Shown here: positions 2,130 to 50,790 of the stretch, piece after piece | How positions within the stretch are numbered: position 1 is the stretch's first letter | Layout of the letters: every line of letters starts with the position of its first letter | Source of the DNA: Eledone cirrhosa | Taxonomy: Eukaryota | Direction of reading: 5' to 3' | Length of the DNA: 64,000 nt | Assembly: GCA_964016885.1 (NCBI GenBank) | Contig: OZ024743.1 | Span: 30,876,001-30,940,000 of the forward strand | Program-made: the position numbers and the translations under genes | The notes under the pieces: model-generated | The model's database searches: none | Seen by the model: only the letters and a program-made list of their open reading frames with translations | Told to the model about the DNA's origin: nothing

Positions 2130-5100
2130 GATAGTTTAACTTGTGAAATGTCTTAAATAAATGCAGATAAACTAAAATTCGTGTATCCATAGTTTCAATG
2201 CAAAATTAGATGCAACGTTATCATTTATTCATTATACATTCCTTATAAATAATTTTATCCAGGTCCAGAATTACAGTATTAAAGGAAATGTCTAATATAT
2301 TTGTGAAAAACATATGAAGATATGATACTTGTTTATATACATTAATTTCAAGAAATAAACAACCCACTCATGTGAAAACAAAACAATGCACATAAAATCA
2401 ATGCAAATATGAATGATGATAATTTCTATAATCATGACCATTAAATATAAAATGAATAATTGATTCATCTGAATGAAACGAAATAAACACCTGGCCATCA
2501 ATTTATGAAATTTTAATTAATATTTGATAATTAATTAATTGAAGCTTTGATTAAATATTCCTTTGCTTGTCATTGTTTGCAGAATAAAGGGTTCAAAGAC
2601 TAATTGAACAAAGTAAATTTCAGATAATGTAGTCGGATGAAATGAGGTATTCTTTGAAATAGAACAAGAAATACATGTTTTATAATATTGCATATTTATT
2701 CTCATTAAGGCGATCGATACCTCAAACAAAATCTCTTCTTTATGCTCAGCTCTTACGATAAAATGGGAGCATTAATGTAACAAGATTTTTGTTTTTGCAA
2801 CATTTACATAGGAAACAAGACTCAAAACAGATACCGATAATAATTATGTCATTATTTAACATTTAATTTAAAATAAGCGAACTGCTTTACGGTATTACAG
2901 AGGAAGTTTAAGGATATAAAAGAATATAATGAAACAAACTACTGATGTATACTGATTATTCTGTTTCATACCCCATTGACAGACTTTGAACTATCGCACC
3001 CTTTTCAATAGTTTAAGTGAATATTGTGTGAACATTATATAACTTTATATCATTATCAATGAATTGTAATTAGACTCAGTTCATTAAGTTTATTTCAAAT
3101 ACAAAGGTTTCCTTTATTTCCAATTCACATCAAATCTTAAATGGTCCTGGTTTTTGTATGCATCATTTACATCTATTTATTAATATATAATTCATATCTC
3201 AGTTTATTGAGTCAAATTTTGAAACGATGATTTCCCAAGCACATAGAGTTCCTCATCCGAGAGTATTTGTGAAATAGAGAGATTCAGTCCAGAATGCACT
3301 GGTGTAACGATTCATCCAAATAGCAACGATGCAGCTTTCAGCGAAATTAGAAAGTCGAAATACACATGAAAAAGCAAACATGCACACACTATGCACCTAT
3401 GCACATATAGAGGGCCAATAAGATTTCGCATTAGAGAGATATAGCAATTGAATTAATGAGAGATTGTGTAAAATATTTCCTGAACGTCATAAAGTGTTTA
3501 ATCCTGCGCTTCTTAAAAGAATCTGAATATTACTTATATCTTTGTCATTCTTTGACAATCACGTGTATAATGTGTCAATACGAAAGCTCGTATATATAAT
3601 AGACCATGTTTTATACACAATAAAATTATTCCTGCATTTATGCAACCATTCTTGTCCATCTTATATGAAAATAAATTTGCCAACTGTGATTTCAGGATAA
3701 TTTTCTAAACAACAGGTAATCTGGTTGCGAAAGCTTAGTAACCAAACTATTCTATTGTTGGTGGATTGCTTCAAATTCATTATCATTAAACCAACTCTAG
3801 CATCATTGGTTGTTTCTTTTTATTAACGAACACGTATTCCAAAACTTCATAATCCTTCATCCAATTCCAGTTCATATACTCTCTCCGCCCTTCCAACATC
3901 TCAGGATTTGTAATTAGAGACATCATTGAGTTTGTCACCTCCTTTTGACTACATAAGGCTTCTATGTACTACACTTTTAACCAACGATGGGTTGGTGCAT
4001 TCAAAATTCTCTCAACACGCTTAGCATACATTTTACATACCACTACGATGTACTGTATCAAAACCAATCAAATACAAGAACATTGAAAATATGTGCATGC
4101 TGGTTTATGCATGAGTTTCAAATAAATTAATAAATGTGTGATGATCGCCTTTTGTAGGTAATTTTGAACAAGAAGATTGCTGTTGTCAACCAATATGGCT
4201 CCCGATGAAATATTACTCGTTGATTCTTAGACCGAATGGATGAGGTCAAAGACATAGACGCATAAAATTAATTGATCGTATCATACTCCTTTACCTCAAA
4301 ACGGAAGTTGCACTCTAACAATATACTCGATCCCTATTACTATAAGGTTTCTACTAGGATTCTTGCAAATTATTCTGATGAAATGAACACCCAATACTAC
4401 AATCTCTTTTATATCCATAACAAATATAAATATACACGCACCCCTATTCGACAAACATTCCCCTCCTATCATGTCACAGATACAGCGAATATGTCAATGA
4501 TATATTATATATTCCATTGGCGACTATCGGAAATCTGCTTTCTAGTCTTCCACCAGTTAGAGAATTTAGCGGCGATTTGCTGATCAAGAACGACTGTGAT
4601 TAAGAGTATTTCATTTTGTCTTTATAGTTAGGGCCCCTGGTAAAATCATTTCGGTACGGTGAACTGACATAAATTAGTTGGTAACAAATTATCTTTGGAG
4701 ATGTCTACTCATATATATATTTCCGGTAGTTTCTGCTGGACTGTAGCCCCATTAATAACAACCCGCTGTCACAGATGCGGAGGGTTATGTTTATCTGTCT
4801 ATACCCAGCTATCAAGCTGTGCCCCTCTATCGTCCTGGATTTCAGGGGAAAAGTGATCAAGCGCACAAAATACCTAGACATGAAAAGATCCTGTATGAAA
4901 TGAATGTCGCTGTTTAAAAATCTTTGAAAACGTTAGGTAGAACATGGCACAGATATTGTTTAAGAATACAAATACAGCAGGACTAAAAACAAATGCGTTA
5001 TATAGCTGGTTAGTTTGATTGTCGCATCACCATGTCGCCACAAACTACTTCTGATTACTTAAATATAGATATAAATATATTCTCATATGCAAAAAAGAAA

Positions 5101-5399
5101 TCTATATCCTCTTAAAATATGAACATTACGTAGTGCCATTCAAGAGGAAAGGCAGATAATTCTATAGAAATCGAAGCATAATTCGTTTAATTCCTCTACA
5201 AAATGAGAAGATGTTTCTATTCTTCATGTAATTATAGGTATTATGTGGCGTCAAATGCCACAGAAGATGTCGATATCAGAGAATAATGTCCGGGTAAATT
5301 CAGTTACATAATACAATGTACATACCAAGAAGATAAATTAATTATTCTTGCTAAAGCCTTTAGGAGAATTTTTGCAAGAGAGTACTCAGGAACTGAATT

Positions 5400-6560
5400 T
5401 CCAGTTGAATGTCATCCAGAAATATTGAAAACATATTAGATAGACTTCAAGTCTGCTGATTTTGTTTCTACTTCATGTGTGTAATACCTTTGAAAGCTAT
5501 ATAACAATCGGGAAGTAGCAGTGGTCTGTTTTCATTTCTTATTCAATTAGTTGTTTATAGTTAGCATTAAACCAAATATAGAGGTCTTCGTGAAAAGAAC
5601 CCTGAATAAAAAGATTATGAATCATGCAAGGGGTACATTTTCTATAGATCTAAATATACTAAAATTATTTCTTATATCCGTCAACATTGCTGGCTCAGAC
5701 TCAGAACTCTGGGGGATTACATGGAACAAAGAATGTTATATTCACTATACGTATTAATCTATCCCCATAGCTTACAATTATTTCAGCAGTTTCAGATACT
5801 ATACTAGACGTGTTAAGAGGTCTGAAGAACGTGTCCCACAGTATGTGCAGTCTTAAAGAACTAGAGAATCACATATAACACTTCTCTACCGCATGCATTT
5901 CTGGTACAACCAAAGAATCAGGATCAGTGTATAGAAGGTAGCTAGTTCAGGATTAAAAATGTGAACAGAATAGAGGGATTACGAGAAACAAGATAGTGTA
6001 AACTCACGGTATGGCAACAAAGGCTTCTGTTAGACTATGCTATCTCTAGATGCAAATTTGTCTATAGATTTCCGAGAGATTTTGCTGAAATAAAACTGAA
6101 CCTATACGTAATATAAAAAGCAGGAATTCCCATAATATCTCTGATCAGAAGAACTTACTCATTAAAGAAAACCCCTTGTATAGAGAGTAATTGACTAACA
6201 TATAATGACGGGTTAAATACAAACTGTGAAACTAGACACAATGTATATAGCATAAGGTGAAGCGGACAGAAGGAAAAATGGAGAGGCATGACCATGGAAA
6301 TCATAGGAGCAACGACTCGCTGTATATGAGAAAGGGTGAAGGAATACTTGCCTGAAAGGAAAGACACAACAAACTGTTCAGTGCTCTGCCAGCATGCCAA
6401 CATATAACAACTGGTTAGCTAGAAAGAATTGAAATACATTTATTAATCTCATACTGAGCAGACAGATTAAGAAAACCATGCATATAAGATTAAGAAAACC
6501 GCCCTACAAAGAAGAGCAAAACAATAAAGCGTAAACCCACTATTGCTAGAAGAGAGGAAT
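5400..6560 (+). pseudogene. Heavily decayed PLE: RT thumb remnants and GIY-YIG endonuclease, same family as 8940-9768 and 38286-39628
   Basis: 6118-6410 reads KAGIPIISLIRRTYSLKKTPCIESN*LTYNDGLNTNCETRHNVYSIR*SGQ...IIGATTRCI*ERVKEY...SVLCQHA, collinear with RCTNSKCIICEVNPRINCKTRNVVYSIRC...YIGET at about 39.1 kb. The upstream limit is approximate. Confidence 0.65.
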
Positions 6561-11994: not shown

Positions 11995-12122
11995 CCCTTT
12001 TATGATCTGAGTTCAAGTCCCGCCGAGGTTGACTTTGCCTTTCATCCTTACAGTGTCGATAAATAAAGTACGAGTAATGCACTGAGATAATTGCTTGCCA
12101 GGTGCAAAAAGTAGGAACAATT
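11995..12122 (+). mobile_element. 5'-truncated SINE family A
   Basis: ctgagttcaagtcccgccgaggttgactttgcctttcatcctta core. Confidence 0.8.
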
Positions 12123-12172: not shown

Positions 12173-12354
12173 GCTTTCACCGTATTTTAACTAAAGAAAT
12201 TTTAGCTTGATAACGGGGTTTAGAACCCTCAGATAAATGGAAAAAGATGAGTATTGACGTACATGTACGTCAATACTCATCTTTTTCCATTTATCTGAGG
12301 GTTCTAAACCCCGTTATCAAGCTAAAATTTCTTTAGTTAAAATACGGTGAAAGC
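12173..12354. repeat. Perfect 182-bp palindrome (91-bp arms, no spacer)
   Basis: Arms compared base by base are exact reverse complements. The centre gacgtaca|tgtacgtc lies at 12263/12264. Confidence 0.97.
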
Positions 12355-13404: not shown

Positions 13405-13612
13405 TTGGTGGCAACGCAATGTGGGTAGATCGTAGGACACTTTGCTTTGTGCCAGAGTGTTACCTTCTGAGTACAAATCCCGCGGAGTTTAAATTTGCCT
13501 TTTACCCTTACAGGGTCAATAAAATAACTTTAACACACTGAGGTTGATTTAATCGAAGTTTCCCCTTCACTTCAATTTACTGTCTTTGTGCAAAATGTAG
13601 AAACTATTATTA
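13405..13612 (+). mobile_element. Diverged SINE family A copy
   Basis: ctgagtacaaatcccgcggagtttaaatttgccttttacccttacagggtcaataaaataa matches the SINE core. Confidence 0.7.
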
Positions 13613-13909
13613 TTATTCATTTTTGTTTCCTCCAAAATTGCTGGCCTTAAGCCTAAATAAGAGACCACCATTATTCATTTTTCGCTGTCATTTATACTTT
13701 ACTCGCGTTATTTTTGTACACTATTCTACGTGTTTTTCTTCTGATATTTTCCTTTCACAGCCATCATTTTCTTTTTCTATTTTCTGTCCAGTTTCCACAT
13801 GTTATCCCTTCTTCATTCCCATTTTCTAAATTTTTATCTATCAATCTCTGTCTCTATGTATCTCTCACTCTCACTGCCTCTCTCTCATAATCTCTTTCTC
13901 TCTCTCCCT

Positions 13910-13940
<31 letters not shown>

Positions 13941-14146
13941 GTATTAATTGTACTATTTATGGTTATGAAAATACAAAAACATTTTGCAGTTATATGTATT
14001 TTTATACACACCCTAAATAGTGGTAGGCAGTAATGTATTACTACCTTATTATCAGTAAGTTAAGTAGCTCAATGTAAAAACATCAGATGATTTACAGAGC
14101 AGTTATATGAAGTATAAGAATCAAAGAACTGTTCAAAACATTATTG

Positions 14147-14193
14147 TGCTTACAGCTGTTTCCTCCAAACCGAGGTTTGGATTCTTCGGAGCA
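14147..14193 (-). ncRNA. Hammerhead ribozyme motif (C4 core variant)
   Basis: Reverse complement is identical to 18587-18633. Confidence 0.75.
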
Positions 14194-14779
14194 ATTTATT
14201 AATGAATGGACAGTTATATGACCTCCTTTTCAGACAAGAGACATACCGATACATATGCAAATATTCTGGGTCAACATTCATTACAGCATTTGGAGTGGTA
14301 GTACACACTTCGAGATTACATTCATAATAAAAGGTACAATCAAAATCAGGTTAAAATACAACATGAAGATAAGCGGTTATATAGTGCAAATGTTATATGT
14401 GTGGCAAGCACGGGCTTCTTGTTTATATAGCGTGGCAGAGAGATATGTGTGGTAGGAGCACTTAGGTAGGTAAAGAAAAGTGTTAGGTTGGTTGATCTGG
14501 TGGCCAATTCTTTATATGATTGTTATAGTCTGTGTGTGGAGAAATGATATAAGCATTAAAAATAGTGCAAGCATTAAAAATATTAAACGTATTGGAGATG
14601 CACAGCGAAGGGATGACAAGGACCTCATGTACTTCGACATTTTCATGGTCAGGGGAGTATATTCTTCGATTATATGCCCCTCACATAATCCACGGCAATT
14701 CTATATTGAGCGTTTGACAATCCAGTTAGAGAATCGTAGTCCGATGTTCTTTAGTTCAATACAGGAGACTGTTACGTTT

Positions 14780-15748
14780 CGCGAAACGACGTTAATAAAA
14801 TTATTGTACACGCAGATAAAACTAATAACATATACAGCCTAGGTTATAATACTTATGGAAAATTTATATATAATGAACTACATAAAAGCTACAAAAAGAC
14901 CACCTTGAACAACTTAGAAGATATTAATATAGAGGGATATAATATAGTGTCTAAACTAGGACTTCAGAGACTTACACAACCATTCACCCCAAACCCCCTA
15001 GATTCTCTCCGAAGGACCATAAAGAGGACTTCATCAGCAACCCCTCGATAAGTCTTATCTGCCCTTCCAAGTCCGACATTGGTATTATCAGTAAGAAAAT
15101 TTTGGATAAAATCATCCCACAAATTAAACACAAGATACACCTTAAACAATGGGGAAATACGGGTGAAGTGATTGAATGGTTCAAAGATATCAAGAATAAT
15201 AAGCACAAAAAATTTATTCAATTTGATATCAATTCATACTACACCTCTATTTCCCCTATCCTATTAAATAAGGCACTTATCATGGCCATGAACAATAGCG
15301 ACCTGACTAGAGCCCAGATTGATGTCATCCTTGCGGCCCGTAAAACCATAATCACCTTCGAAGACCAACTATGGACACGCAAGGATACGCACAACAACTT
15401 CGACATAACCATGGGATCTAGTGACTCGGCGCAGGTCACTGATTTGGTCGGCCTATACCTTCTCAATGAAATCCATAAGGACCTCCCTTACCTCAACGGT
15501 GGTTTGTACCGCGATGATGCACTTCTACTTATAGAATATAAAAAAATTTAATATAGAAAGAGCTAGAAAACAATTGCATAAGACATTCAAAAACTTTAAC
15601 CTTAGTATCACCATGGACAAAAACACTAAAAATGTAAACTTCCTAGACGCCACACTATACCTAGACTCAAAAATATATACACCTTTCCATAAGCCTAACA
15701 AAAAACTCATTTACGTAGATACTAAATCTAATCACCCTAGATCAATAT
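14780..15748 (+). pseudogene. Inverted partial copy of the same RT, frameshifted and truncated after SNHPRSI
   Basis: ORFs 15102-15551 and 15574 onward are nearly identical to the - strand 667-aa ORF. Confidence 0.9.
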
Positions 15749-15882
15749 TATCTCCCAGCGAAGGGTTCCGGAGGGATGTCGTAGTTTGTGTTATATTAGA
15801 TCAGTTAGTGTTGTGTATGTGGTATAAGGTGTGCCCCTGGTGTTTGATGCTAGATGTGGTGTTTGGTTCAAGTCCGACATTG

Positions 15883-18015
15883 CTATATATTGGGGTTAAA
15901 GTTTTGGAAGGAATGTCTGAAGCGGTGCTGGCAAGTTGCAAATACCTCAGATTTTTTGTTAAGTAGGTTACGGTTGGAGAAGATAATATTGTGGGTCTCT
16001 AGTATACAGAGGTTACAAAATGTATTAGGTGGTTTGTACGAAGTCGCGCTGCCTATCACTTCCCATTTGAGTGTGTATGGTTTATTTTTAGTTTTTAGAT
16101 AGTCTATGTAGCTAGATAGTGAGGTGGAGTTGGCTAGGCTGTGCTTTTTGAACGAGTGGATGTGCGAATTATATCTGATTTTGAAGCAGTTAGAAGTGGA
16201 GCCTACATAGGTTTCTGAAGAGTTGCTAGCTGTGACGGTGCATGAGTATATGATATCCTTGGTTAGGCATTTTTTATCCAAGGGGCAGGTTCTATTAGCT
16301 CTATAGTTACAATTATCCTGTGTGTTAGTCTGCTGGTTATAATGCAGTGCAGAAGTCTGGGTGGTAGCTATAGGATTTTGGACATTCGGGTTGTCAACCC
16401 CGGTGTTATTTCTCATACTAGTGTTATTTCTATTGTTACTGCCGTTACTATGGTTGCTTGCTACAGAGGTATTTAGAAGGTTTGCATCCTGTTGTGATTT
16501 CGTTTGTTGGAAGTAAGAATTAATTTTATTTTTATTGCTGCTAGCTATGTGGTATGCTAAGTTAGGCGTCGTAGAGTATGAGATTTTAATAGTGTTTTTG
16601 TTTAAAAGGTTGTTGTACTTGTGTCCTAGAGGGAAGTTTTTATCTAGTAGTGAGAAGAAAGCCCTAGGTATGTTTGTGGAGACATTTAGGTTGAAAGGAG
16701 GGTTGAAAAATGTATTATTTCTTCTTCTATTTTTGCTTTTAGTGTTTGGTGTGTTGTTTCTTCCTACGGCACCACAGTAGTTTCCGTGGTAATGGTTACT
16801 TCCGGTGGCACCCTCCGCTTTGGTGTACTTGTGGTTGCTATTCCTATTATTAGGTTTCCTCATGGACATGTTGTGCGAGATGATGTTGTAGCTATGCGTT
16901 TTCTTAGGTAGGAACTCAATTTCTATATTATGGCCGGATCTAGCTAATGCTTGATTGTAATATTGTGAGTTTTTGCTAAATATGTTTGCGTCATAGGACA
17001 GGCTAGAGATTCTATTGGATACCCCCTTAGAGATAGAGTTTACTATTGATCTAGGGTGATTAGACTTAGTATCTACGTAAATGAGTTTTTTGTTAGGCTT
17101 ATGGAAAGGTGTATATATTTTTGAGTCTAGGTATAGTGTGGCGTCTAGGAAGTTTACATTTTTAGTGTGTTTGTCCATGGTGATACTAAGGTTAAAGTTT
17201 TTGAATGTCCCATGCAATTGTTTTCTAGCTCTTTCTATATTAAATTTGTTATATTCTATAAGTAGAAGTGCATCATCGCGGTACAAACCACCGTTGAGGT
17301 AAGGGAGGTCCTTATGGATTTCATTGAGAAGGTATAGGCCGACCAAATCAGTGACCTGCGCCGAGTCACTAGATACCATGGTTATGTCGAAGTTGTTGTG
17401 CGTATCCTTGCGTGTCCATAGTTGGTCTTCGAAGGTGATTATGGTTTTACGGGCCGCAAGGATGACAACAATCTGGGCTCTAGTCAGGTCGCTATTGTTC
17501 ATGGCCATGATAAGTGCCTTATTTAATAGGATAGGGGAAATAGAGGTGTAGTATGAATTGATATCAAATTGAATAAATTGTTTGTCCTTATTATTCTTGA
17601 TATCTTTGAACCATTCAATCACTTCACCCGTATTTCTCCATTGTTTAAGGTGTATCTTGTGTTTAATTTGTGGGATGATTTTATCAAAAATTGTCTTGCT
17701 GATAATACCAATGTCGGACTTGGAAGGGCAGATAAGTCTTATCGAGGGGTTGCTGATGAAGTCCTCCTTATTGTCCTTCAGAGAGAATCTAGGGGGGTTT
17801 GGGGTGAATGGTTGTGTAAGTCTCTGAAGTCCTAGTTTAGACACTATATTATATCCCTCTATATTAATATCTTCTAAGTTGTTCAAGGTGGTCTTTTTGT
17901 AGCTTTTATGTAGTTCATTATATATGAATTTTCTATAAGTATTATAATCTAGGCTGTATATGTTATTAGTTTTATCTGCGTGTACAATAATTTTATTAAT
18001 GTCGTTTCGCGAAAC
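15883..18015 (-). CDS. PLE reverse transcriptase plus GIY-YIG endonuclease (Naiad-like), uninterrupted but 5'-truncated with no natural ATG
   Basis: The frame stays open upstream of the tracked ORF (KIIVHADKTNNIY). Motifs: RLICPSKSDIG, FDINSYYTSI, GGLYRDDAL, NFLDATL, SNHP, FFNPPF, CPLDKKC, IIYSC...YVGST, CNLC..E, LNKKSE...CQH. Confidence 0.9.
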   Translation of the reverse strand, partial: VSRNDINKIIVHADKTNNIYSLDYNTYRKFIYNELHKSYKKTTLNNLEDINIEGYNIVSKLGLQRLTQPFTPNPPRFSLKDNKEDFISNPSIRLICPSKSDIGIISKTIFDKIIPQIKHKIHLKQWRNTGEVIEWFKDIKNNKDKQFIQFDINSYYTSISPILLNKALIMAMNNSDLTRAQIVVILAARKTIITFEDQLWTRKDTHNNFDITMVSSDSAQVTDLVGLYLLNEIHKDLPYLNGGLYRDDALLLIEYNKFNIERARKQLHGTFKNFNLSITMDKHTKNVNFLDATLYLDSKIYTPFHKPNKKLIYVDTKSNHPRSIVNSISKGVSNRISSLSYDANIFSKNSQYYNQALARSGHNIEIEFLPKKTHSYNIISHNMSMRKPNNRNSNHKYTKAEGATGSNHYHGNYCGAVGRNNTPNTKSKNRRRNNTFFNPPFNLNVSTNIPRAFFSLLDKNFPLGHKYNNLLNKNTIKISYSTTPNLAYHIASSNKNKINSYFQQTKSQQDANLLNTSVASNHSNGSNNRNNTSMRNNTGVDNPNVQNPIATTQTSALHYNQQTNTQDNCNYRANRTCPLDKKCLTKDIIYSCTVTASNSSETYVGSTSNCFKIRYNSHIHSFKKHSLANSTSLSSYIDYLKTKNKPYTLKWEVIGSATSYKPPNTFCNLCILETHNIIFSNRNLLNKKSEVFATCQHRFRHSFQNFNPNI

Positions 18016-18586
18016 GTAACAGCCTCCTGCATTGAACTAAAGAGCATTGGACTACGATTCTCTAACTGGATTGTCAAACGCTCAATATAGAATTGCCGTG
18101 GATTATGTGAGGGGCATATAATCGAAGAATATACTCCCCTGACCATGAAAATGTCGAAGTACATGAGGTCCTTGTCATCCCTTCGCTGTGCATCTCCAAT
18201 ACGTTTAATATTTTAATGCTTGCACTATTTTTAATGCTTATATCATTTCTCCACACACAGACTATAACAATCATATAAAGAATTGGCCACCAGATCAACC
18301 AACCTAACACTCTTATTTACCTACCTAAGTGCTCCTACCACACATATCTCTCCGCCACATTATATAAACAAGACGCACGTGCTTGCCACACATATAACAT
18401 TTGCACTATATAACCGCTTATCTTCATGTTGTATTTTAACCTGATTTTTTATTGTACCTTTTATTATGAATGTAATTTCGAAGTGTGTACTGCCACTCCA
18501 AATGCTGTAATGAATGTTGACCCAGAATATTTGCATATGTATCGGTATGTCTCTTGTCTGAAAAGGAGGTCCATTCATTAATAAAT

Positions 18587-18633
18587 TGCTCCGAAGAATC
18601 CAAACCTCGGTTTGGAGGAAACAGCTGTAAGCA
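18587..18633 (+). ncRNA. Hammerhead ribozyme motif (C4 core variant)
   Basis: tgct CCGAAGA a tccaaacc tc ggtttgga g GAAAC agct GTA agca. Stem I tgct/agca, 8-bp stem II, palindromic stem III ACAGCTGT, GUA cleavage triplet. Confidence 0.75.
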
Positions 18634-18715
18634 CAATAATATTTTGAACAGTTCTTTGATTCTTATACTTCATATATATATAAATATATAAATAAGTACA
18701 TATATATATATATAT

Positions 18716-19700
18716 AAATTGCATGTTTGAAGAATTATTAGATAAAATATACCCAATCTTTCCTCACCCTAGACCGTACAAATCAACTAGATAAATAATC
18801 ATTTAAAAGGAGCTAAAAGTTTAAAATGTAACTTCGAAGAAACAATATACAAATGATACAGACTATTTTCCGCGAGGAACAGTCAGATAAAATTTATCAA
18901 GTCTTTCATCTTATTCCATACTAATTAACTAGACAAATAATCAATTAAACGGAGCTAAGTCTCAAATATAAGTTAGAAGAAAAAATGTATATAAACTTTA
19001 CCAAAATTCCTCTAGTCCCGTGTATCGATAGTTTCGCTCATACTTCGTGGACATCTCCAAACTTAATATACTCCCGTTCGGTAGAGTAAATATTAGGCAG
19101 TATCTGACTGCTCATTCTAGCAGCCAGCCTACCTGCCACCTTCTAATTTGACCGCTCTGCCACGTGATGATTATTAGCCATTTTGAATTCATAACTGGCG
19201 GCGATCACTGTAGAATTTTAGTCCAAACTTGAGGGAGTTTCTTGATAAGCCCTAAGCCACATATATCATACCTAAATCGGACATATCCACAAAGTACGAG
19301 CGAAACTATCGATAGCCGGGACTAGAGGAATTTTGGTAAAGTTTATTTCCATGTTTTCTTCTAACTTATTTTTTAGACTTAACTCCGTTTAATTCATTTT
19401 TTGTCAAGTTAATTTCTACGGGCTAAGAGGAAAGACTGGATACATTTTATCTGACTATTCCTCGCGCAAAATAGTCTGTATCATTCGTCTATTATTTCTT
19501 CGAAGTTACATTTTAAACATATAGCTGCGTTTAAATGAGTATTTATCTAGTTGATTTCTACGAGCTATGGTAACAAAAGATTGGGTGTATTTTATCTAAT
19601 AATTCTTCAAACTTGAAATCTTACATATAGCCCTCATTAATAATGATTTGCATAATAAAATGTTTCATTGTGCCACACCGTGAAAGGTAGCCACACTCAT
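18716..19700. mobile_element. Old non-coding fold-back element (arms about 18716-19050 and 19280-19620) with a decayed HHR and a right-side tail
   Basis: tttgaagaattattagataaaata.acccaatcttt is inverted at the other end, and each arm has an internal tandem duplication. 19237-19322 reads gtttc TTGATAA gc...gc GAAAC tatcgata GCC gggac. Confidence 0.75.
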
Positions 19701-19762: not shown

Positions 19763-19793
<31 letters not shown>

Positions 19794-19798
<5 letters not shown>

Positions 19799-20418
19799 CA
19801 TTATGAAGAGAGAAGAAACATTAGATATAATTAGTAATAAGATATATCATACCCAAACTGCTTCTATAGTCCCCGACTACGTAGTTTCGTGGCATATTAT
19901 GCAAAAACACAACATCATAGAGATATAGAGTTTTTGTGAGGTTCTGCCGATTTATCCAGAGTATACCTCATTAAGAATTTTAAAACCGTCTGTAATGCGC
20001 GAAATAGAATCTCGAAAAGGCGGAAGGGGAGACGATCACGTGATACAGCGGTCAAGAAACAGAGCTATATCACATGATTGACTCCCCCTCCGCCTTTTCG
20101 AGATTCTATCTCGCGCATCACAGACGTATTTTGAAACCCTTAGTGAGGTATCCTCTTGATAAGTCAGCAGAACCTCACACAAACTCTATATCTCTATTAT
20201 GTAGTGTTTTTGTATAATATGCCATGAAACTACGTAGTCGGGGACTATAGAAGCAGTTTGGGTATGATATATCTTATTACTAATTATATCTAATATTTCT
20301 TTTCTCTTCATAATGTATTATATAGCTCTGATACTGAATCAATCTAATCCGTTCGGATTGGTTTGTCCCAGTTATTCATAGAGCAACATCGGTTGACGTT
20401 GGTGCCACTAACTCAGGG
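19794..20418. mobile_element. Non-coding fold-back element (palindrome 19794-20323) with tail 20325-20418
   Basis: Arms taatacattatgaagaga... and ...tctcttcataatgtatta are inverse over about 255 bp with scattered mismatches, in a (TA)n context. Confidence 0.9.
20151..20244 (+). ncRNA. Hammerhead ribozyme motif (U3-A8 variant, long stem II)
   Basis: tcctc TTGATAA g...[about 60 nt]...GAAAC tacgta GTC gggga. Stem I tcctc/gggga, stem III palindrome ACTACGTAGT. A mutated mirror copy lies at about 19870-19963 on the - strand. Confidence 0.6.
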
Positions 20419-39721: not shown

Positions 39722-39769
39722 TAAGAGAGTAAAACAAAGAAGCCTTCAATACATCAAAAGTCTTTATTA

Positions 39770-39807
39770 GCCGACAATGTTTCGTCCTATTAAGGACTCA
39801 TCAGGGC
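39770..39807 (-). ncRNA. Minimal type I hammerhead ribozyme (canonical)
   Basis: gcc CTGATGA gtcc ttaata ggac GAAAC att GTC ggc. All three stems and the full core are present. Confidence 0.9.
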
Positions 39808-41493
39808 AATTAAAACAACAAGAAGTAATATCGGCAGATACAAGCCGGAAGCTATAATAAGAATTACTAAGGATGTATATAACATTAAGAACCATATTAC
39901 AAATATAGTCTAAAGCAAAAAACCTAGAGCTAAACAAAGGTGGTTATATAGAGCAGGAATTATATATAATACAATGTAATATAATATAATATAATATACC
40001 TTTACCAACATTAAAATTACAATAAAAATCAAAAGGTACAATATGCATATGTATAGTATATATGTGCGCACACGTACACACACATACACATACAACAATA
40101 CACACATCCATCTTCAACTGCACAAATTAAACCTTATTAAGAGTTTGAATATAAAAATAAGCATGATAGGAATGAAAATATTAATAATAATAATACTAAT
40201 ACATCTACCCAATATACATGAGGTAATAATATGATATAATTATAAGTAGCACATATAATAAATAATAAACAATACAATTATATACTATATAATACAATAT
40301 AATAGAATATATAATCTCCGGTTAATTTACACAAACAATATAGATGTCACAATAATAATATAATAATAATATACTAACATTTATAATAAACAATATTTAA
40401 TGGTACTCAAGTTAACAAATCAATTCATACTGGGTTAAAGAGTAGGTGAGGAAAAATAAATTGTACAATACCCCCAAAAAATTGTTGATGGTACAAAAAT
40501 ACAAACATCTTACATGATATATAAAGTTTAACATATCATAATGTTACATATAATTAACGGTAAGTAATAAGGATCAATATTACAATAAAACATACAATAT
40601 AATATAATATATTATATAAAATAAATTAACATAATATAATATATAATTACTTATGATTACAAGGTTGGTAGACAGACATGTATATGTATGAGTGAGTAAG
40701 TGCCAGACAGTAGTATTACAAATAAAATATAAAATATAAGATATAGAATAAAATAATAAATAGAATCAACCGGAAATTAAAACACAAAAACAAACGTATA
40801 CATTTAGGTCTCACATGCAGTTAAGTAGTTAAGTAAAAACTAAGGAAACAACCCCTGTAAATGACTCGAAAACCCTATTTGATAAATTAATATTGAAAAT
40901 ATTTAAACTATCCAATAAGGCAGTATAATATAGGCTATAGTTTAAGTCATTAAAGTTTATAAACGTTAATATTTCGTTACAAATGTTTACAAAAAGGAAT
41001 GAAAATTTTTTACTATCATATACATAACGATATCTAAAAAACTGACTTAAGCAGAATTAAGGTAGGCTAATAGGGACAGAAATGAAAAAATATATGGAGG
41101 ATGCAAAGGGGCATAAAATATAGTCGATATACTATATTACATAATAGAAAGGAGCGTAACAGAGGGGGGAGTTAAATATAATCATAGTCAATTTGGAGGG
41201 GTTGACAATAAGTTTATGTGCGCTTTTGGTTATCCAAAGAAGAATCCGAATAAAAATAAAAATAAAAATAAGAATAAAATAAAATAAATAGCGTGAAATA
41301 TATACTCTTATATACATTCATAAGGTGTAACAGTGAAAATTTAATGCGTAAGAAGATAGATATGGTACAGTAGCCAAAAGATTATGAGAGCTAGAATGAA
41401 GAGTCATCAAAAACCAATGATAATAATGATGATAATAATAATGTTGGCAAACAAAAGAACCTAAACTAAAAAATAAGTAATGGAATATATCAG

Positions 41494-42460
41494 CTAATGG
41501 GTACAATTTGTACTACTAGAACGTTTAGGTTTATAATAAAAGTATGAATTAGAAATAGCGTGGGGGCAAGAAGAGAATATCTCAGACTTTCTATTAAGTA
41601 TGGATGCGCTAGAGAAAATTATAGAGTGTGTATCGAGGATACAGAGATTGCAACACTTAGTACGTGTAGAAAGGTGGTTAGAGCGTGCTACTAAACGCCA
41701 GTTAAGGCTATATGGTATATTAGCTCCCTTAAGATCCCAGATATAATGTGCTAAAGAAGTAGAATTCTTAAACTTAACATGTTTGAAATTAGAGATATGA
41801 GAGTTAAACCTAGTCTTAAAAGTATTAGATGTAAAGCCTATATAAGTTCTATTAGAGGAATTAGTTATAACTTCGCAAGCATAGACAATGTTCTTAGAAA
41901 GGCAGTTACCGTTTAAAGGGCAGTTAGCACTCACTCTACAATTGCACTTCCGGGTGTTATTGGTTGGCTCAAGTGGTGATGCATTACACGTAGGTTTGCT
42001 ATTAGATAAGGACTGTTCTGATGGTAATGCATTGCCAGATCTGTTCAGACTAGTAGTATGTAGAGAGGAGAATCCATCCCTAATTTTCCTATTGTTAGTG
42101 CTAGCTAAATGAGAACTAATATTAGGGGTGGTAGAGAATGAAAGTTTAATAACATTTTTATTAAAAATACTATGGTATTTATGAGAAGGGGGGAAATGTT
42201 TCTCTAAGATAGAGAAGAAAGACCTACGGATATTAGTTGATACTTCCTGATTATATGGCGGGTTAAAATAAGTATTTAATCGCCTTCTATTTTTATTCTT
42301 ACCGACTCTACCATTATCAAATATCCCACCATCAAGACTAGCGTTACTACAAGGATTAGTTAAAGCCACATTCATAGAATCAGCCAAAATTTCATTAAGC
42401 CTATTACAGTTTCTACCTCCAGTAGATCTGCTGCTGTCCGGAATCCCATCATAAGGATTA
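41494..42460 (-). pseudogene. C-terminal part of a Naiad-like ORF (post-RT linker and GIY-YIG)
   Basis: YFNPPY, KHFP, IKLSFSTTPN, CNCR..CPL..C, IVYAC...YIGFT, FKTRFNSH, CNLC, LNRKSE..CPH. Confidence 0.9.
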
Positions 42461-44737
42461 GGGCCAATGATAGGATCATGTTAAGTTTAAGAATTCTACT
42501 TCTTCAGCACATTATATCTGGGATCTTAAGGGAGCTAATATACCATATAGCCTTAACTGGCGTTTAGTAGCCCGCTCTAACCAGCTTTCTATACATGTTA
42601 AGTTTTGTAATCTCTGTATCCTCGAGACACACTCTATAATTTCCTCTAGCGCATCCTTACTTAATAGAAAGTCTGAGATATTCTCTTCTTGCCCTCTCGC
42701 TATTTCTAATTCATACTTTTATTATAAACCTAAACGTTCTAGTAGTACAAATTGTACCCATTAGCTGATATATTCCATTACTTATTTTTTACTTTAGGTA
42801 CTTTTGTTTGCCAACATTATTATTATCATCATTATTATCATTGGTTTTTGATGACTCTTCATTCTAGATCTCATAATCTTTTGGCTACTGTACCATATCC
42901 ATCTTCTTACGCATTAAATTTTCACTATTACACCTCATGAATGTATATAAGATTATATATTTTACGCTATTTATTTTATTTTATTCTTATTTTTATTTTT
43001 ATTTTTATTCGGATTCGTCTTTGGATAACCCGCCACAACCCCCCCCCCATGCGCACATAAACTTATTGTCAACCCCTCCAAATTGACTATGATTATATTT
43101 AACTCCCCCTCTTTTACGCTCCTTTCTATTATGTAATATAGTATATCGACTATATTTTATGCCTCTTTGCATCCTCCATATTTTTCTTCATTTCTGTCCT
43201 TATTAGCCTACCTTAATTCTGCTTAAGTCAGTTTTTTAGATATCGTTATGTATATGATAGTAAAAAAAATTCATTCCTTTTTGTAAACATTTGTAACGAA
43301 ATATTAACGTTTATAAACTTTAATTACTTAAACTATAGCTAATATTATACTGCCTTATTGGATAGTTTAAATATTTTTAATATTAATTTATCAAATAGGG
43401 TTTTCGAGTTATTTACAGGGGTTGTTTCCTTAGTTTTTACTTAACTACTTAACTGCATGTGAGACCTAAATGTATACGTTTGTTTTTGTTTTTTAATTTC
43501 CGGTTGATTCTATTTATTTATTTTATTCTATATTTTATATTTTATATTTTATTTGTAATACTACTGTGCATTATATTTACTTCCTGGCACTTACTCACTC
43601 ATACATATACATGTCTGTCTACCAACCTTGTAATTATAAGTAATTATATATTATATTATGTTAATTTATTTTATATAATATATTATATTATATTGTATGT
43701 TTTATTGTAATATTGATCCTTATTACTTACCGTTAATTATATGTAACATTATGATATGTTAAACTTTATATATCATGTAAGATGTTTGTATTTTTGTACC
43801 ATCAACATTTTTTGGGGGGTATTGTACAATTTATTGTTCCTCACCTACTCTGTAACCCAGTATGAATTGATTTGTTAACTTGAGTACCATTAAATATTGT
43901 TTATTATAAATGTTAGTATATTGTATATTATAAATGTTAGTATATTATTATAATATTATTATTGTGACATCTATATTGTTTGTGTAAATTAACCGGAGAT
44001 TATCTATTCTATTATATTGTATTATATAGTATATAATTGTATTGTTTATTATTTATTATATGTGCTACTTATAATTATATCATATTATTACCTCATGTAT
44101 ATTGGGTAGATGTATTAGTATTATTATTATTAATATTTTCATTCCTATCATGCTTATTTTTATATTCAAACTCTTAATAAGGTTTAATTTGTGCAGTTGA
44201 AGATGGATGTGTGTATTGTTGTATGTGTATGTGTGTGTACGTGTGCGCACATATATACATGTGCATATTGTACCTTTTGATTTTTATTGTAATTTTAATG
44301 TTGGTAAAGGTATATTATATTATATTTTATTACATTGTATTATATATAATTCCTGCTCTATATAACCACCTTTGTTTAGCTCTAGGTTTTTTTGCTTTGT
44401 ACTACATTTGTAATATGGTTCTTAATGTTATATACATCCTTAGTAATTCTTATTATATATTTTTATTATTTTTATTATTTTTATTATTTTTATTATATAT
44501 TATTGCAATACTCTAGTGTATGTACACTCCATATTATTCGGAGCTTCCGGCTTGTATCTGCCGATATTACTTCTTGTTGTTTTAATTGCCCTGATGAGAC
44601 TTTTGATGTATTGAAGGCTTCTTTGTTTTACTCTCTTAATTTTTCGGCTCTGTTTAACTACATTGAGCTATGCCTTTTACTGTCATTTCTATAATACGAA
44701 GAGGGTGTTTAACTCCAACCAGCTCCAGTATTTTAAC

Positions 44738-44852: not shown

Positions 44853-45147
44853 TATACATAGATATATTATATATGTATATATACATACATATATATCCAG
44901 GGGTACTTAGTACCCTTGGGTATATTAACTTCTATTATTATACTCCGTTATGTAGAGAACAAATCTGTTGTATCTATTTAGCTGCTATTTATAGTAACGA
45001 GATAGACAACGTGTCTATGTTTCTCCCGTATTTACCTCGGGCAGTTCACGTACGGGTCATTTTTCGACCTTATTAGATCCGTGCTAGCTGGCGGATAACA
45101 ATATATTTTATCGTTCCTGGGTCTTTAGCCCTAGGAACGGAAAATGC

Positions 45148-45226
45148 TTCTCTGATGAACTTTGATTTTCCATTACAAATCCATTGGATTTCTGGTGTTT
45201 TACAAAGCGAAACCGATCGGTCAGGG
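45148..45226 (+). ncRNA. Hammerhead motif in a solo terminal-repeat fragment (about 44897-45310) between (TA)n tracts
   Basis: ttct CTGATGA actttg...caaagc GAAAC cgatcg GTC aggg, with stem III palindrome ACCGATCGGT. Confidence 0.75.
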
Positions 45227-45307
45227 CCAAAAGAATAGGTAAATATTTAAATTATATTTTTTAATTTATTTTAAAAAATTGGTTGAATTTTGCTTGTTCT
45301 GCTTATC

Positions 45308-45351
<44 letters not shown>

Positions 45352-46359
45352 CAGTATATTATACATCTCTAATACTGTCATCACCATGACATATGTGGGT
45401 TCAGGCTAACCCTGAACCACTATAAACATACCGAGCAACTTCCATGTCATGTGAACTTCCAAATAATGCCTAAACTACTACAAACATATCACACCAAATA
45501 TCCAATCTCAATACGCATGTGTAAACTATAAATTGCAATACTAAAAAGATCCAATTACCCGTACAGGCCTGATCAACTGCAGAGCAACCAGCTTTTAACA
45601 ATTAATCATATTAACTACCAAGTTAACACAACCTATCCACATACTACAAATCAAAACGAACCACATCAAATTAAACTCAACCGGTCTTTATCTACAAAAT
45701 AAAACATCGAAATAACAATTAACCAAGACCAATAATCTCCTTAAATTAGCAATTATCATACCTGATGTCATTTATCTCCAGTGTACTAATGCAACATTCA
45801 CGTCACATAGAAAACAAATTAATGAAAATATTGTTAAATGTGAAGTAATAATTAATTTAACATTACAACAAGGCAAAACACTAAATGTTACTCAGCAACA
45901 TTCCTATATTTACTTCACGTCGATCAACATTTGAATGAAGACCAGCACTCCATTTTTAAATTGAAGTACACATGAATTAATCAGACCTGTCCAAGGTTTT
46001 TCGTGTGTTCATCGAGTTTTAAAGTTTTCCTTTTTTGTGAAATGTTAATTTTTCTTTAAATATTCTCCTTTATTTCATGCATATGTTTGTTGGTTTGCAT
46101 AATTGTGTCTTGCCAAAAATATTTTTCATCTAGGAGAAAACTTTGTCTCCATTAGTGGGGTCAGGAGACGTAGTGTCGTGCTAAGCACATGTTTGGTCAT
46201 AATTATGTCCATGTTATTACTTGCATCATCCGCATTCCCAGTGTCACTCAACTGAGCCGCTCTAAGAACATGTAACACATTCATCTCTTGGCTCTTGAGG
46301 CCCAAGTCACGTCCGACATGATGGTGTCTAACATTATTAGATGCTTGTGGATTGGCTGG

Positions 46360-46545
46360 GGATTGGAAGTATCGATAGAGGGTCGGACGCCATGCTTTGA
46401 CGCATAGAGTTATGGCCCTTGTCATTCTGAGTCCAAATCCCACGGAGGTTAACTTTGCCTTTCATCCTTACGAGTTCGATAAAATAAAGTACCAGTAATT
46501 CACTGGTTAATTGCTGGCCTTGTGCCAAAAGTAGAAACAATTACT
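46360..46545 (+). mobile_element. SINE family A
   Basis: Full-length unit. Confidence 0.85.
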
Positions 46546-46859
46546 AGATGCTTATTACTAGGGTGTCGGAACGAACAGCCTCGTTAATTTTCTGGTCTAT
46601 CTGAGACATGGATCTCTGTAACCATAGGTTCTTCAATAGGAAATCTTTAGATGGAAATGAATACTAGGGCTCTTCTAACCTTCAATTCAGAATTTTGTGT
46701 GAATTAGTTCGGTTTCAAAATTCCTGAAAAAAAGACGAGCTTCTTCTTCTTCTTCCTTTAATTATATTAACAACATTTTAAACATGAGACAGTTTCATAA
46801 TTCGAATTTTTCTTCTTCTTCTACTTCTTCTTCAGCTCAGCTAGATTGCATTAGACAAT

Positions 46860-47120
46860 ATCCTTACATCACTTTGCCAGACACTTAGTATAGACTTTAA
46901 ACGGGATGTATAACAAAGAGATACTTTTACAACTGACACAATTTCTCTTGTCTCCGCTTTTGAAAATTAGGATTCTCACTCCCGACTGCCGTCGCTTACA
47001 GGCCTCCTGCCCAGAGGTTTTGCCACATTTGAGCTCTTTAATTGCTCTTGAGTCTTCATTTTCTGGGAGCCTACTCAATCGCTCTCTGATGAACCTCAAT
47101 GGCATCAGAAGATGCTGTTG
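46860..47120 (-). mobile_element. RTE-clade LINE RT fragment
   Basis: AIKELKCGKTSG...IFKSGDKRNCVSCKSISLLYIPFKVY matches the conserved IFKKGD...C.NYRGISLL..PGKVY motif. Confidence 0.75.
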
Positions 47121-47496
47121 CAATCGAGTTTAGGAGATCAGCAAAATATTCTCTCTAACTCACTATGATGAACCTCGCTGAAGAAAGAACCTCTTCACCC
47201 TAATGTGCCTCGATGCGATATTTACCTCAACATAGCATTGGTATTTAAATTTAATAGAGTTATAAATGCAAGCTTAATTGTGTAGAAAATGTATAGCTAT
47301 ATATATATCAATGTGTACGTTAATGTGTGGCACATTACGTTGCGAGTATATGTTGCCATGGAATTTACAGCCAGTTATATGTAAATCATGATGGCTGGTT
47401 GTACCGTTGAACTCGAATACTCACTGGCAGAACTGACAGATCTATTTCAATACAAAAGTATGTATATATACACACTAACACACACATATATCAAAA

Positions 47497-47619
<123 letters not shown>

Positions 47620-47657
47620 CATGTGTGTGTGTGTGCGTGTGTATATATCTATCTATC

Positions 47658-47692
<35 letters not shown>

Positions 47693-47732
47693 ATATATAT
47701 ATGCATATATATATATGTATACACACACACAC

Positions 47733-47785
<53 letters not shown>

Positions 47786-50166
47786 CAATCATATTTATTG
47801 TGTGTATATCAATTGGAATGGTTTAAGCAACACACAAATTGAATAATTTATTGATACACCGATCGAACCAATAACCATATATTTGAATCTCACATGGATT
47901 TAGGCGTCGGAAAAATGCATGTCAAAAGTAAATGGTGCACGAAACATCTTAGAATTAACGAAAACTGGCCCACAGTAGATTGATCGAAATAACAGAATTA
48001 CTTAGCTCTGACAGTAAAGTAGCCATTGAGGCAGTTCTTATATCCCCGCTGGTCTTACACAGCAATCATAACAGCCAACCCTGTAATGATTTCCATAAAA
48101 ATATCTTCCTTTGATATTCTTTTTATTTGTTTATACTTCAAATTATTCACAATATATTGGTATATATGTATATACATTTTTTTGTTATCTATATGAAAGT
48201 ATATCTATATACATACAAGTACTATATGTGCGTGCGTGTGTCTCTGTTTGTGTGTGCAGTGGGTGTGTGTCCGGTGAGTATGTATATGTCTATAATTTTT
48301 TTCAGCTCCTGCACATATCCCTTAATTCAAAAGGAATGAATATCATCGATTTAAGCATTATTAGAACCTCACGTGTTTTTTCTCATAGAAACCAATCCAT
48401 AAGTCGTTGGAAGTAATATCGTAAGGGTAAATACTTTATATATCTGGTCATTTAAATCAGAAACTATTTCTACCAGCATTAAATTAATGTTTATATATTT
48501 ATAAATATATATAATTACAATTATGGAAATTGAACTAGAAATTATAGATGAGGAAGTACGAGACAAAATCTTAAAGAAAAGTGGTTAATTTATTTGATTG
48601 CGCTTCTTGTTGCATCTAGATCTGAGGAATAGGTATCTAGTCAAAAAGCAATATGGCATTGTTTTATATCCATGGAAAATAAATTGACACATCATAGATT
48701 TCTAACAGTATCGTAACTTATATATATGTGTGTACGTTTTATTTTGATATCGAAAATGTTGAATATCATATGTCTTAACCAGTACTTTGTGATGGGCGGA
48801 AATTGTCAACAACCATTGAACCATGAGCAATTATTTTTTAAAGTGAGTCAAGATTATATTCTATGCATTGTAATTATATTTATTCCTCACTTAAAATCAT
48901 TGTACTACTTCAATATTATGGCACACGCGTATGCCACACTCAGGTTTGTTTTCTTAATTCAACTTCACCGTTATAGACGTGTATATTTTGATAATGATAG
49001 ATAAGTGAACCTGTTATATCTCTTTTACAATTTTTACCCTATCCAGCCACCCAACTTAGTACATGCTGAGGCACCATCCATGAAAAACAATTGTTGAATA
49101 AAATTTATTCAGTTAATTCTGATAATGATTGAACCTCTAACCACTCACCGTAGTTAGAACTTCCAACACAATTTCCATATGAGCCACCGGACTGTCGCAA
49201 AGGCTGCATATACAACACTAAATTACAGTATTAATGCTTAATAAATAAATATTAATTTATAAAAGATAGCGATTTTGTGAGCATGAGTTAAATAATGATA
49301 TTACGTTAACACATACCGCGAAGCATAGAAAGTTCAGTAGAACTACAATTAGTTTTTTGCCTCATTTTCATATCCGATTGGCGTTTCTGAAGGTGATAGA
49401 CATTTAGCAGATGATAAATGTAATTTAACGTAGTAACAAAGTTGTTAGAGGAAATAATGTAATTGTTATAACGCCACGAGTAATCAGTTTGGTAGAAAGA
49501 TGTGTTGGTCATATCGACAAACGAGTAACTTGAGAACAACGTCAACAAGAAGAAGGTTCGTGAGATGAAAAGTATGTTTATTTGTTGTGGCACAAAGTAA
49601 TGTTTAGTTAAATTGTATGATTGCAGTTCAACGTAAAAAAGGTTAGAAAAGGAATGTGCCATTGTGCCAGGCCCGAGGCAGGCTAAAGTGCAAAATCTCA
49701 CCGTTACATGTTGTACGTGTTGTTCCTACGAAGTTCAGGATGCGAGAGGCTGATTCTTCAAATCCTCGCGGGGAATTTCTCCCTCAGGGCGCGTAGGGAT
49801 ACATTATCTTCTACTGGCGCTGATTGATTGAGCTGAACCAAATCACGCAGAGAGAATGTGTGTGAGCCCGCGGAATGTAGGTCACTACAGACATAAGATA
49901 AACTGCAGGCATCTGCTATTCATTGAATGACCATTGCCATTGTAAATGCCTCCACACGCAAAATATTAAATGCATACACACACGCGCGGGGACACAATCA
50001 AGAACACATGCACAGACACACATGCTGACACACACACGCACACACACATATGTGTGAATTCATTTAAAAGTTAGTTTGTCAATGAAAAAGATCATATATG
50101 TCGTAGAGTGTATATTGTTTAGTAAAATTGAATTCAAGTCGAGAGCAAAAGTATTTAATGTAAATA

Positions 50167-50197
<31 letters not shown>

Positions 50198-50223
50198 TGT
50201 ATGTATGTATGTATGTATGTATG

Positions 50224-50254
<31 letters not shown>

Positions 50255-50661
50255 GAGATGACCCCTTAGTTTTTGTCAAGGCAGAATTCTAGGAGAAGGA
50301 AAACTCTGATATAACACCTGCAACGCTGATGGTATCCAATGATGATGAATTGTTCTTCTTTTTGGTAAATATCATCTTGGTTAAAAGAGTGGGACTGGCT
50401 TTGTGCAGTGCCTTTGTGCTCACTATAAAAGCTTCACGGCACAGGCATTGCTTTATATCTGGGGATCTCTCTGCACTTGTCATCACAGGGTACAATGGGC
50501 CCAGCACTATGTGTCAGTAATTGTCATAAGTGTAGTGTTTTTACCAGAATTTTCAAGTCGCTGGCTGGACTAAAAAGTCCAACTCGTTCAGCGCATCGGT
50601 AGGGGTTCTCCTACATGGATATAAAGTAGTGGCCGTACTCGAAAACGAGTTGGCAGCCACC
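50255..50661 (+). mobile_element. 5'-truncated copy of a bipartite non-autonomous RTE element
   Basis: Near-identical to 50953-51343 and bounded by (ATGT)n. Confidence 0.8.
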
Positions 50662-50790
50662 ATGTATGTATGTACGTATGTATGTATGTATGTACGTGTG
50701 TACATATGTACGTATGTATGTACGCATGTACGTATGTACGTATGTATGCATACACGCATGTATGTATGCATGTATGTATGTATGTATATA

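Follow-up and report, generated by a model that had tools for sequence, protein, structure and literature searches.

The stretch analysed here (the window) comprises 64,000 nucleotides of the Eledone cirrhosa genome (GenBank assembly GCA_964016885.1, contig OZ024743.1, positions 30,876,001 to 30,940,000 of the forward strand) and contains, at window positions 13941-18676, a large fold-back of a Penelope-like element (PLE) inserted in a TA repeat. In both arms of the fold-back, a 3' piece of the pseudo-long terminal repeat (pLTR) of the element, in sense orientation, is fused at the same junction to an N-terminally truncated open reading frame (ORF) that lies antisense to it. The fold-back structure is real and represents an unusual variant of a known insertion pattern. 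We tentatively interpret it as a head-to-head PLE insertion in a (TA)n site of which both arms arose by reverse transcription of a single chimeric RNA derived from an earlier head-to-head insertion, a reading that we rate somewhat short of an even chance. The initial annotation of this DNA had proposed that a first-generation element was transcribed backwards and that its inverted repeat served as the functional 3' end for a second round; this mechanism is the leading explanation of the locus, and is unproven. Direct observations comprise the anatomy of the locus, its unique junction, the place and orientation that the pLTR piece normally has, the rule of two 3' ends and the sister relationship of the arms.

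The locus sits on contig C4 of the genome searched (3 Gb in 1796 contigs) and was mapped on a ruler copy, L053 (C20:15289800-15296800); numbers preceded by L053 are positions in that copy. A BLAST comparison of the region against itself yielded an inverted repeat of 14104-15750 with 17041-18676 (1649 columns, 96.8% identity), and the sequence between the arms, 15751-17040, forms a unique centre. Read along the plus strand, the fold-back consists of the reverse complement of L053 6067-5201, the pLTR 3' part up to and including its final 169 nt (window 13941-14792), L053 2280-3237 in the sense of the ORF (14793-15750), the reverse complement of L053 4498-2280 (15751-17998), and L053 5201-5898 in sense (17999-18676). 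The segment L053 4499-5200 is missing from the locus. Window 13938-14797 aligns to L053 1895-1031 as well as to L053 6103-5201.

The left flank is a (TA)n microsatellite (13909-13940), the target, and a similar flank borders the reference copy on C20. The left unit begins with a tail (13941-14103, minus strand) made up of the pLTR letters between the two 3' ends of the family (L053 5899-6067 by alignment); the tail starts with ACTGCTC (reverse complement of 14095-14103) and is missing from the right arm. It is followed by the left pLTR 3' piece (14104-14792, minus strand; L053 5201-5898), which holds a hammerhead-like motif (14147-14194, minus strand, located by an exact match) and a 14-nt palindrome, cgtttcgcgaaacg, native to the pLTR (14775-14788). 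The ORF fragment of the left arm (14793-15750, plus strand; L053 2280-3237, approximately codons 115-434) is spread over three frames owing to two 1-nt indels. The right unit contains, by alignment to L053, the first 132 nt of the 3' untranslated region (UTR; 15751-15882, minus strand) and an ORF of 704 codons open to the stop (15883-17998, minus strand), in which a DKG-type motif (ADKT) is followed by the reverse transcriptase (RT, with YRDD) and, at the C terminus, by a GIY-YIG nuclease. The minus-strand frame is open from stop to stop for 717 codons (15883-18036), and this ORF lacks a start codon and about 114 N-terminal codons. The right arm is completed by its own pLTR 3' piece (17999-18676, plus strand), which aligns up to the first family 3' end (L053 5898) and carries the palindrome (18003-18016) and a second hammerhead-like motif (18586-18633, plus strand); the TA-rich right flank of the target follows at 18677-18720.

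At the centre, the right unit ends 132 nt past its stop codon (15751) and meets the left arm (15750) in a join that is blunt or shares at most 1 nt. This agrees with the initial annotation, in which the arms met about 130 bp past the stop codon and the true 3' repeat was missing; about 700 nt of 3' UTR and the 3' pLTR, which come next in ordinary copies, are absent from the right unit. The outer parts of the arms are asymmetric. The left unit continues for 163 nt to the second 3' end of the family, and the boundary of the inverted repeat (14103|14104 and 18676|18677) coincides exactly with the first. No flanking DNA lies inside the inverted repeat, which stops at the element ends.

Ordinary copies of the family show where the pLTR piece normally lies. 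In L053, the pLTRs are direct repeats of 1082 nt (835-1898 and 4988-6069) that are 96.6% alike and have a period of about 4.15 kb. The ORFs of two further copies, L065 and L059, are open over 832 and 834 codons, respectively, from stop to stop, and start about 40 nt past the 5' pLTR. The 660 nt to the right of the palindrome (18017-18676) recurred in at least 40 copies at 90-94% identity (best 40 of 2622 candidates). Among 28 loci anchored on the pLTR, 13 had the collinear end of a sense ORF and the 3' UTR upstream, and the other 15 were collinear as far as they reach; the pLTR piece was joined to an antisense ORF in none of the 28. The expectation that the segment running from the palindrome to the end is the 3' region that follows the stop codon is borne out, in that 17999-18676 (plus strand) is a pLTR 3' piece that lies downstream of the ORF and in sense in ordinary copies. 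The same piece also makes up the 5' pLTR of the C20 copy, again in sense, and is thus not a naturally antisense 5' region. The 5' ends of insertions are scattered across the family, and approximately 20 head-to-head junctions were seen among 46 loci. The first-generation form proposed in the initial annotation, an inverted 3' repeat plus a truncated ORF, is common in the family, with the ORF 5'-truncated and in sense (L008, L018, L047, L058, and L060); the parent of the window locus itself was not found.

The fusion of the pLTR piece to the ORF lies at 17998|17999, with its mirror at 14792|14793, and 1-2 nt may be shared between the two sides. In the ORF, the cut falls at about codon 115 of about 820, immediately before the ADKT motif. 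The RT frame had been described as cut at the palindrome itself. The palindrome is indeed present in both arms, but the fusion lies 4 nt away from it, and the palindrome is part of the native pLTR; in its perfect form it is a variant of a sub-lineage, which 6 of 40 other copies also carry. A hot spot of 5' truncation at the palindrome was also considered, with 5 of 28 loci ending at L053 5181-5237, but the choice of loci favours copies just long enough for the query, and we make no such claim.

Insertions of this family terminate at either of two places, near L053 5898 and near L053 6067. In all nine other head-to-head pairs in which both canonical ends were visible, one end was of each type; three more pairs with a non-canonical inner fragment were left out of this count. 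The window locus has a 6067-type end on the left and a 5898-type end on the right. A stricter rule, that the short arm always bears one type of end, was rejected, as the tail was on the long arm in three pairs and on the short arm in three. In copies that read through these places, ACTGCTCTGT stands directly after 5898 in 56 of 62, and AACTGCTCCA stands after the 6067-equivalent at the border of 5' pLTR and ORF in 20 of 32. The heptamer ACTGCTC follows both 3' ends in read-through copies (56/62 and approximately 26/32; for example, L053 5899-5905 and 1897-1905) and is, from its placement, a candidate start-site signal for reverse transcription. A PLE protein has been reported to cut and extend both strands in vitro and to start reverse transcription at two internal RNA sites with the tail between them; a 5'-truncated template RNA merely gave a shorter product, and the full pLTR was dispensable (PMC11167929). 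That each of the two ends precedes ACTGCTC is compatible with internal initiation by the RT at two sites, both DNA strands being extended.

Of the 1649 aligned columns, 52 differ between the two arms, an 11-nt indel among them. Substitutions between them number 16 of 689 columns in the pLTR part (2.3%) and 21 of 953 in the ORF part (2.2%), which is what simultaneous copying of both parts would give. In maximum-likelihood trees the arms were sisters (T, 99/97; ORF, 87/84; concatenated, 100/97), and their closest relatives, L055-L057, are near-full-length ordinary copies that are 98% identical over the ORF and UTR. Variants exclusive to both arms amounted to 6 in 680 pLTR columns and 1-2 in 953 ORF columns, and 8 and 13 ORF variants were private to the single arms over the same 953 columns. 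Neither arm is a copy of the other, because the tail is confined to the left and the ORF stretch corresponding to L053 3238-4498 to the right. Since each arm holds sequence that is missing from the other, both require a shared template in which the junction was already present, and snap-back of a single cDNA was rejected. An aged, dead parent was also considered: 13 pLTR variants were at first counted as private to both arms, of which 7 proved to be shared with closer relatives (L004, L055-L057, and L061), leaving 6. Family-wide divergence is 5.15% in the pLTR and 2.60% in the ORF (55 pairs), and because pLTRs diverge faster than the ORF throughout the family, the excess of pLTR variants does not date the parent. 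Editing of the ADAR type was likewise rejected, with no A>G excess among variants common to the arms or private to one of them.

The element is a canonical EN+ PLE with a C-terminal GIY-YIG nuclease, a group that comprises Penelope/Poseidon, Neptune, Nematis, and Hydra. It had been labelled Naiad-like, a name that does not hold, because Naiads are defined, in the sections of PMC8557442 that introduce them, by a GIY-YIG endonuclease N-terminal to the RT and linked to it by a CxC motif. Here, the order is DKG-type motif, RT, Cys motif, and GIY-YIG, and no GIY-YIG is found in the N-terminal 120 or so residues of full-length ORFs and homologues. Alignments place YRDD at residue 252 of the ORF, the Cys motif at 576, IIY at 595, and YVG at 610, and the DKG-type motif reads ADKT in the window ORF. 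Naiads are further marked by a modified DKG motif and by an IFD insertion in the fingers of the RT. Homologues numbered 510 proteins at E<=0.001, mostly of 600-800 residues and covering 98-100% of the ORF. An AF2 model of the 704-residue ORF (mean pLDDT 81.6) has a beta-beta-alpha-alpha-beta-alpha arrangement at 582-672, and in a Foldseek search of the PDB this model had 191 matches at E<=0.001, with reverse transcriptases on top and telomerase catalytic subunits at ranks 3-6, 8, and 9. A profile search of PDB sequences returned 0 matches, and Pfam matched no family on the window ORF. Direct Pfam support is weak, with GIY-YIG matched in 2 of 46 aligned homologues; the GIY-YIG stretch of the ORF aligns to the part of protein P0001 that matches Pfam GIY-YIG (E 1e-5, residues 504-529). 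The traits of PLEs present at the locus or in its family are an RT related to telomerase RT, the C-terminal GIY-YIG, tandem pLTRs, 5' truncation, an adjacent inverted copy, and a one-sided tail. The extra Cys motif may point to the Neptune/Nematis type.

The motifs in the pLTR pieces had been described as hammerhead ribozymes (HHRs) that lie antisense to, and upstream of, the RT in their own arm. Their position and orientation stand, and in ordinary copies the motif is in the pLTR and sense to the ORF; they are not recognised hammerheads, however, and we call them hammerhead-like. The motif reads CCGAAGA ... GAAAC AGCU GUA, with a helix II of 7-8 bp and a C-AGCU-G helix III. Its core is CCGAAGA instead of CUGANGA (U4 = C), and positions 10.1/11.1 are A/G; the canonical form continues with G12-A13-A14 and is cleaved after N-U-H. 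In PLE hammerheads as described in part of PMC4209133, the G10.1-C11.1 pair that closes helix II is highly conserved, and a short helix III has a palindromic loop. Rfam gave 0 matches over the whole window at the gathering score and no hammerhead over 13900-18750 at E<=10. The non-canonical core is not decay of this copy, because 45 of 48 aligned copies of the family, both arms included, share it.

A second large fold-back, of another PLE family, lies at 39917-44392 in the window, with arms of about 1.86 kb (96-99% alike), a 695-nt centre, and an ORF at 41494-42480 (minus strand). A canonical minimal hammerhead (CTGATGAG...CGAAAC...GTC) is present just outside its left arm at 39773-39804 (minus strand), in the same sense as the ORF and downstream of it; with Rfam Hammerhead_1, 39766-39810 scored 31.7 bits, below the gathering score of 34.

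On the explanation that we tentatively favour, an ordinary head-to-head insertion elsewhere would have joined an antisense copy, 5'-truncated near codon 115, to the pLTR piece of the opposite copy. A transcript would have crossed the ORF in antisense and continued into that pLTR, where the family RT, acting in trans, would have started at the two usual pLTR sites, one per target strand, and copied whatever lay upstream. The two cDNAs would have stopped at different points (15750 and 15751) and would then have been joined. Every step except the transcript is standard for the family; what we infer is that a parent locus existed, that its transcript ran antisense or read through, and that mobilisation took place in trans. 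This route is favoured because the normal place of the pLTR piece is downstream of the ORF, in sense orientation, because the outer ends are the two standard ends of the family, one per arm, and because structures of the parental type are common. The ORFs of L065 and L059 are open and could supply the protein. The sister relationship of the arms, their equal divergence in pLTR and ORF parts, the lack of flanking DNA inside the inverted repeat, and the need of both arms for a common junction-bearing template argue in the same direction, as does the fact that both ends precede ACTGCTC, matching the internal two-site initiation shown in vitro (PMC11167929).

Several points weigh against this route. 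With a 121-nt junction probe, only the two arms spanned the junction, and 38 others stopped at base 59 (best 40 of 1102 candidates); a genome-wide search with a 32-nt junction pattern at up to 3 mismatches likewise matched only the two arms, and the control pattern gave 0. Three closely spaced arm-specific pLTR variants occurred in no other copy, the best other match being 97% (best 40 of 1171 candidates). Neither a parent nor a sibling sharing the junction, as envisaged in the initial annotation, was found in the assembly by these searches, which scored the best candidates only, so that the absence of either is unproven. Four other chimeric junctions (L019, L025, L060, and L047) were each sought at a second locus and none was present, so re-mobilisation of chimeras is not demonstrated in this PLE family. 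No promoter is known for an antisense or read-through transcript. Moreover, if the pLTR in the parent was a terminal fragment, the RNA would have been left without ACTGCTC beyond the 6067 end; the parent must then have been a pair in which this piece served a longer copy, in sense, as its 5' pLTR, unless priming took place in the (UA)n flank. Finally, an in-situ rearrangement at the DNA level accounts for every observed feature and fits equally well.

Such a rearrangement, which we regard as possible and somewhat less probable, would have affected one ordinary head-to-head insertion at this site by way of its own 698-nt inverted pLTR repeats. The starting structure would have been a minus-strand main copy, 5'-truncated near codon 115 and ending at 13941, together with a 698-nt inverted pLTR fragment (17999-18676). 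A template switch during replication or repair, or an exchange between flip isomers, would have copied the junction and 958 nt of ORF across and deleted the 3' UTR segment of about 700 nt. Rearrangements mediated by inverted repeats and yielding inverted duplications are established, which counts in favour of this route, and its required starting structure is common in the family. Neither a second retrotransposition nor an antisense RNA would be necessary, and a junction confined to this locus is explained at no extra cost, along with the one outer end of each standard type, the blunt central join, and the missing 3' UTR segment. The substitutions between the arms are patchy, at 0 to 9 per 200 nt, and may reflect gene conversion from arm to arm, again at the DNA level. 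On such a history, however, the pLTR parts should predate the ORF parts, yet their divergence is equal; the event must therefore fall early in the life of the locus, with a rough likelihood ratio of about 3 against a uniformly timed event. The six arm-exclusive pLTR variants, one of them 9 nt from the outer end of the repeat, must also have been present in the source RNA already, unless the switch fell in the last few homologous bases, and two template switches are needed in all.

A single complex integration with no genomic parent appears improbable to us. In this scenario, nascent strands of a single target-primed reverse transcription on an ordinary RNA would have switched repeatedly between RNA and cDNA and so made both copies of the junction. 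The formation of the junction and the duplication of the arms are indeed close in time, with 1-2 ORF variants exclusive to both arms against 8 and 13 private ones, complex tandem and inverted products are known among the PLE insertions described in parts of PMC8557442, and both strands are cut and extended in vitro (PMC11167929). However, an identical junction would have to be made twice or copied by way of at least three switches, for which we found no simple path, and a fold-back with three junctions occurred in 0 of approximately 70 other loci examined. An assembly artefact, such as a fold-back chimeric read, is very improbable. Tandem and inverted PLE structures are known to trouble assemblies, according to the portions of PMC8557442 on this point, and no short, repeat-collapsed contig of four sequencing runs bridges 15750|15751 or 17998|17999. 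Against an artefact, the 52 differing columns and the 11-nt indel mean that the arms are not one molecule read twice. The tail is on the left only, and both ends of the locus fall at canonical element ends in a (TA)n site.

The locus can be set beside several known systems. In the twin priming, or 5' inversion, of L1, primings on opposite target strands give head-to-head pieces that are joined centrally, an arrangement shared with the locus. The L1 pieces are adjacent, non-overlapping parts of one sense RNA, whereas the arms of the present locus have 1.65 kb in common and carry their cargo in antisense. Rearrangements of the DUP-TRP/INV-DUP type and replication template exchange involve inverted repeats that are homologous, a single homologous switch together with a join of little or no homology, a lengthening of the repeat, and a loss of neighbouring sequence; no difference between the window locus and these is visible in the sequence.

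Canonical EN+ PLE insertion units, as presented in parts of Craig et al. (2021, PMC8557442), resemble the present locus in their 5' truncation, partial tandem pLTRs (here seen in the C20 copy), head-to-head inverted copies, one-sided tail, and (TA)n target, and in their coding region, likewise, the RT comes before a GIY-YIG nuclease at the C terminus, an additional Cys motif lying upstream of the latter. The locus differs from the units presented there in that the interiors of its arms are antisense to the pLTR end, that one aberrant junction is present in both arms, and that the tail is 163-171 nt instead of 30-40 bp. Frangieh et al. (2024, PMC11167929) described two-site initiation by Anolis Poseidon, which is similar in that there are two fixed 3' ends, one per arm, each before the same short source motif. 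That work was, however, carried out in vitro on sense templates and in another clade, its start sites lie inside the start of the ORF and are 30-40 nt apart, and antisense cargo was not reported there. Non-autonomous PLE derivatives and trans-mobilised cargo (retrozymes, MRC1, and host genes; covered in parts of PMC8557442 and bioRxiv 10.64898/2026.07.22.740005) similarly keep the 3'-end module and depend on protein supplied in trans. As described in those parts, they form multi-copy families, whereas we have a single locus whose mobilisation is deduced from its structure. No description of a re-mobilised antisense PLE strand was found in the literature, as judged at the level of listings, and no title among the papers on PLEs and twin priming dealt with PLE insertion structure.

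Other features were noted in the family and in the surroundings of the locus. In two copies, L019 (=L066) and L025 (=L072), the 5' end bears a short stretch (143 and 221 nt, respectively) of the sequence just around their own truncation point, in inverted orientation; these pieces stop short of a canonical 3' end, both junctions are unique in the genome, and the pieces look like products of L1-style twin priming from an internal site. L059 contains, at about 4659-4666, a head-to-head pair in which both arms start at L053 5537, forming a hairpin-type junction that has no loop; in most pairs the inner ends are unequal. Word depth in short-contig data (runs X1-X3) over the hammerhead-like end of the pLTR (14048-14221 and 18572-18745) exceeded that in the remainder of the element approximately 10-30-fold (45,000-63,000 versus a few thousand). 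This is compatible with a great excess of very short 5'-truncated copies; the kind of run is unknown, and the depth is silent on expression. Directly to the right of the locus, two small fold-backs lie in the same TA-rich stretch, at 18718-19619 (341-nt arms, 87%) and 19790-20324 (196-nt arms, 92%), and are probably short inverted retroelement stubs. To the left, a perfect palindrome at 12173-12354 consists of two 91-nt arms that are 100% complementary, without a spacer. A short repeat in two copies (12006-12063 and 13466-13523; 83% alike) contains a tRNA-like stretch, GAGTTCAAGTCCCGC, and is probably a short interspersed element (SINE).

The integration of PLEs is still poorly known. The rule of one end of each type, together with ACTGCTC, provides a concrete and testable start-site signal. 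If the DNA route is true, the abundant inverted insertions of this family would be hot spots for further rearrangement. We also put forward, with caution and as a possibility that we do not rate as high as even, that a head-to-head PLE insertion is a two-way retrotransposable unit, in which the transcript of either strand enters a pLTR with two RT start sites and can thereby move antisense or any other upstream DNA; the present locus would then record such a second round as a fossil and show that about 0.7-0.9 kb of pLTR 3' sequence suffices in cis. If the RNA route is true, a pLTR module with two start sites would be the sole requirement in cis, one RNA would yield both arms of a fold-back, and the common head-to-head insertions could seed non-autonomous derivatives with foreign or antisense cargo.

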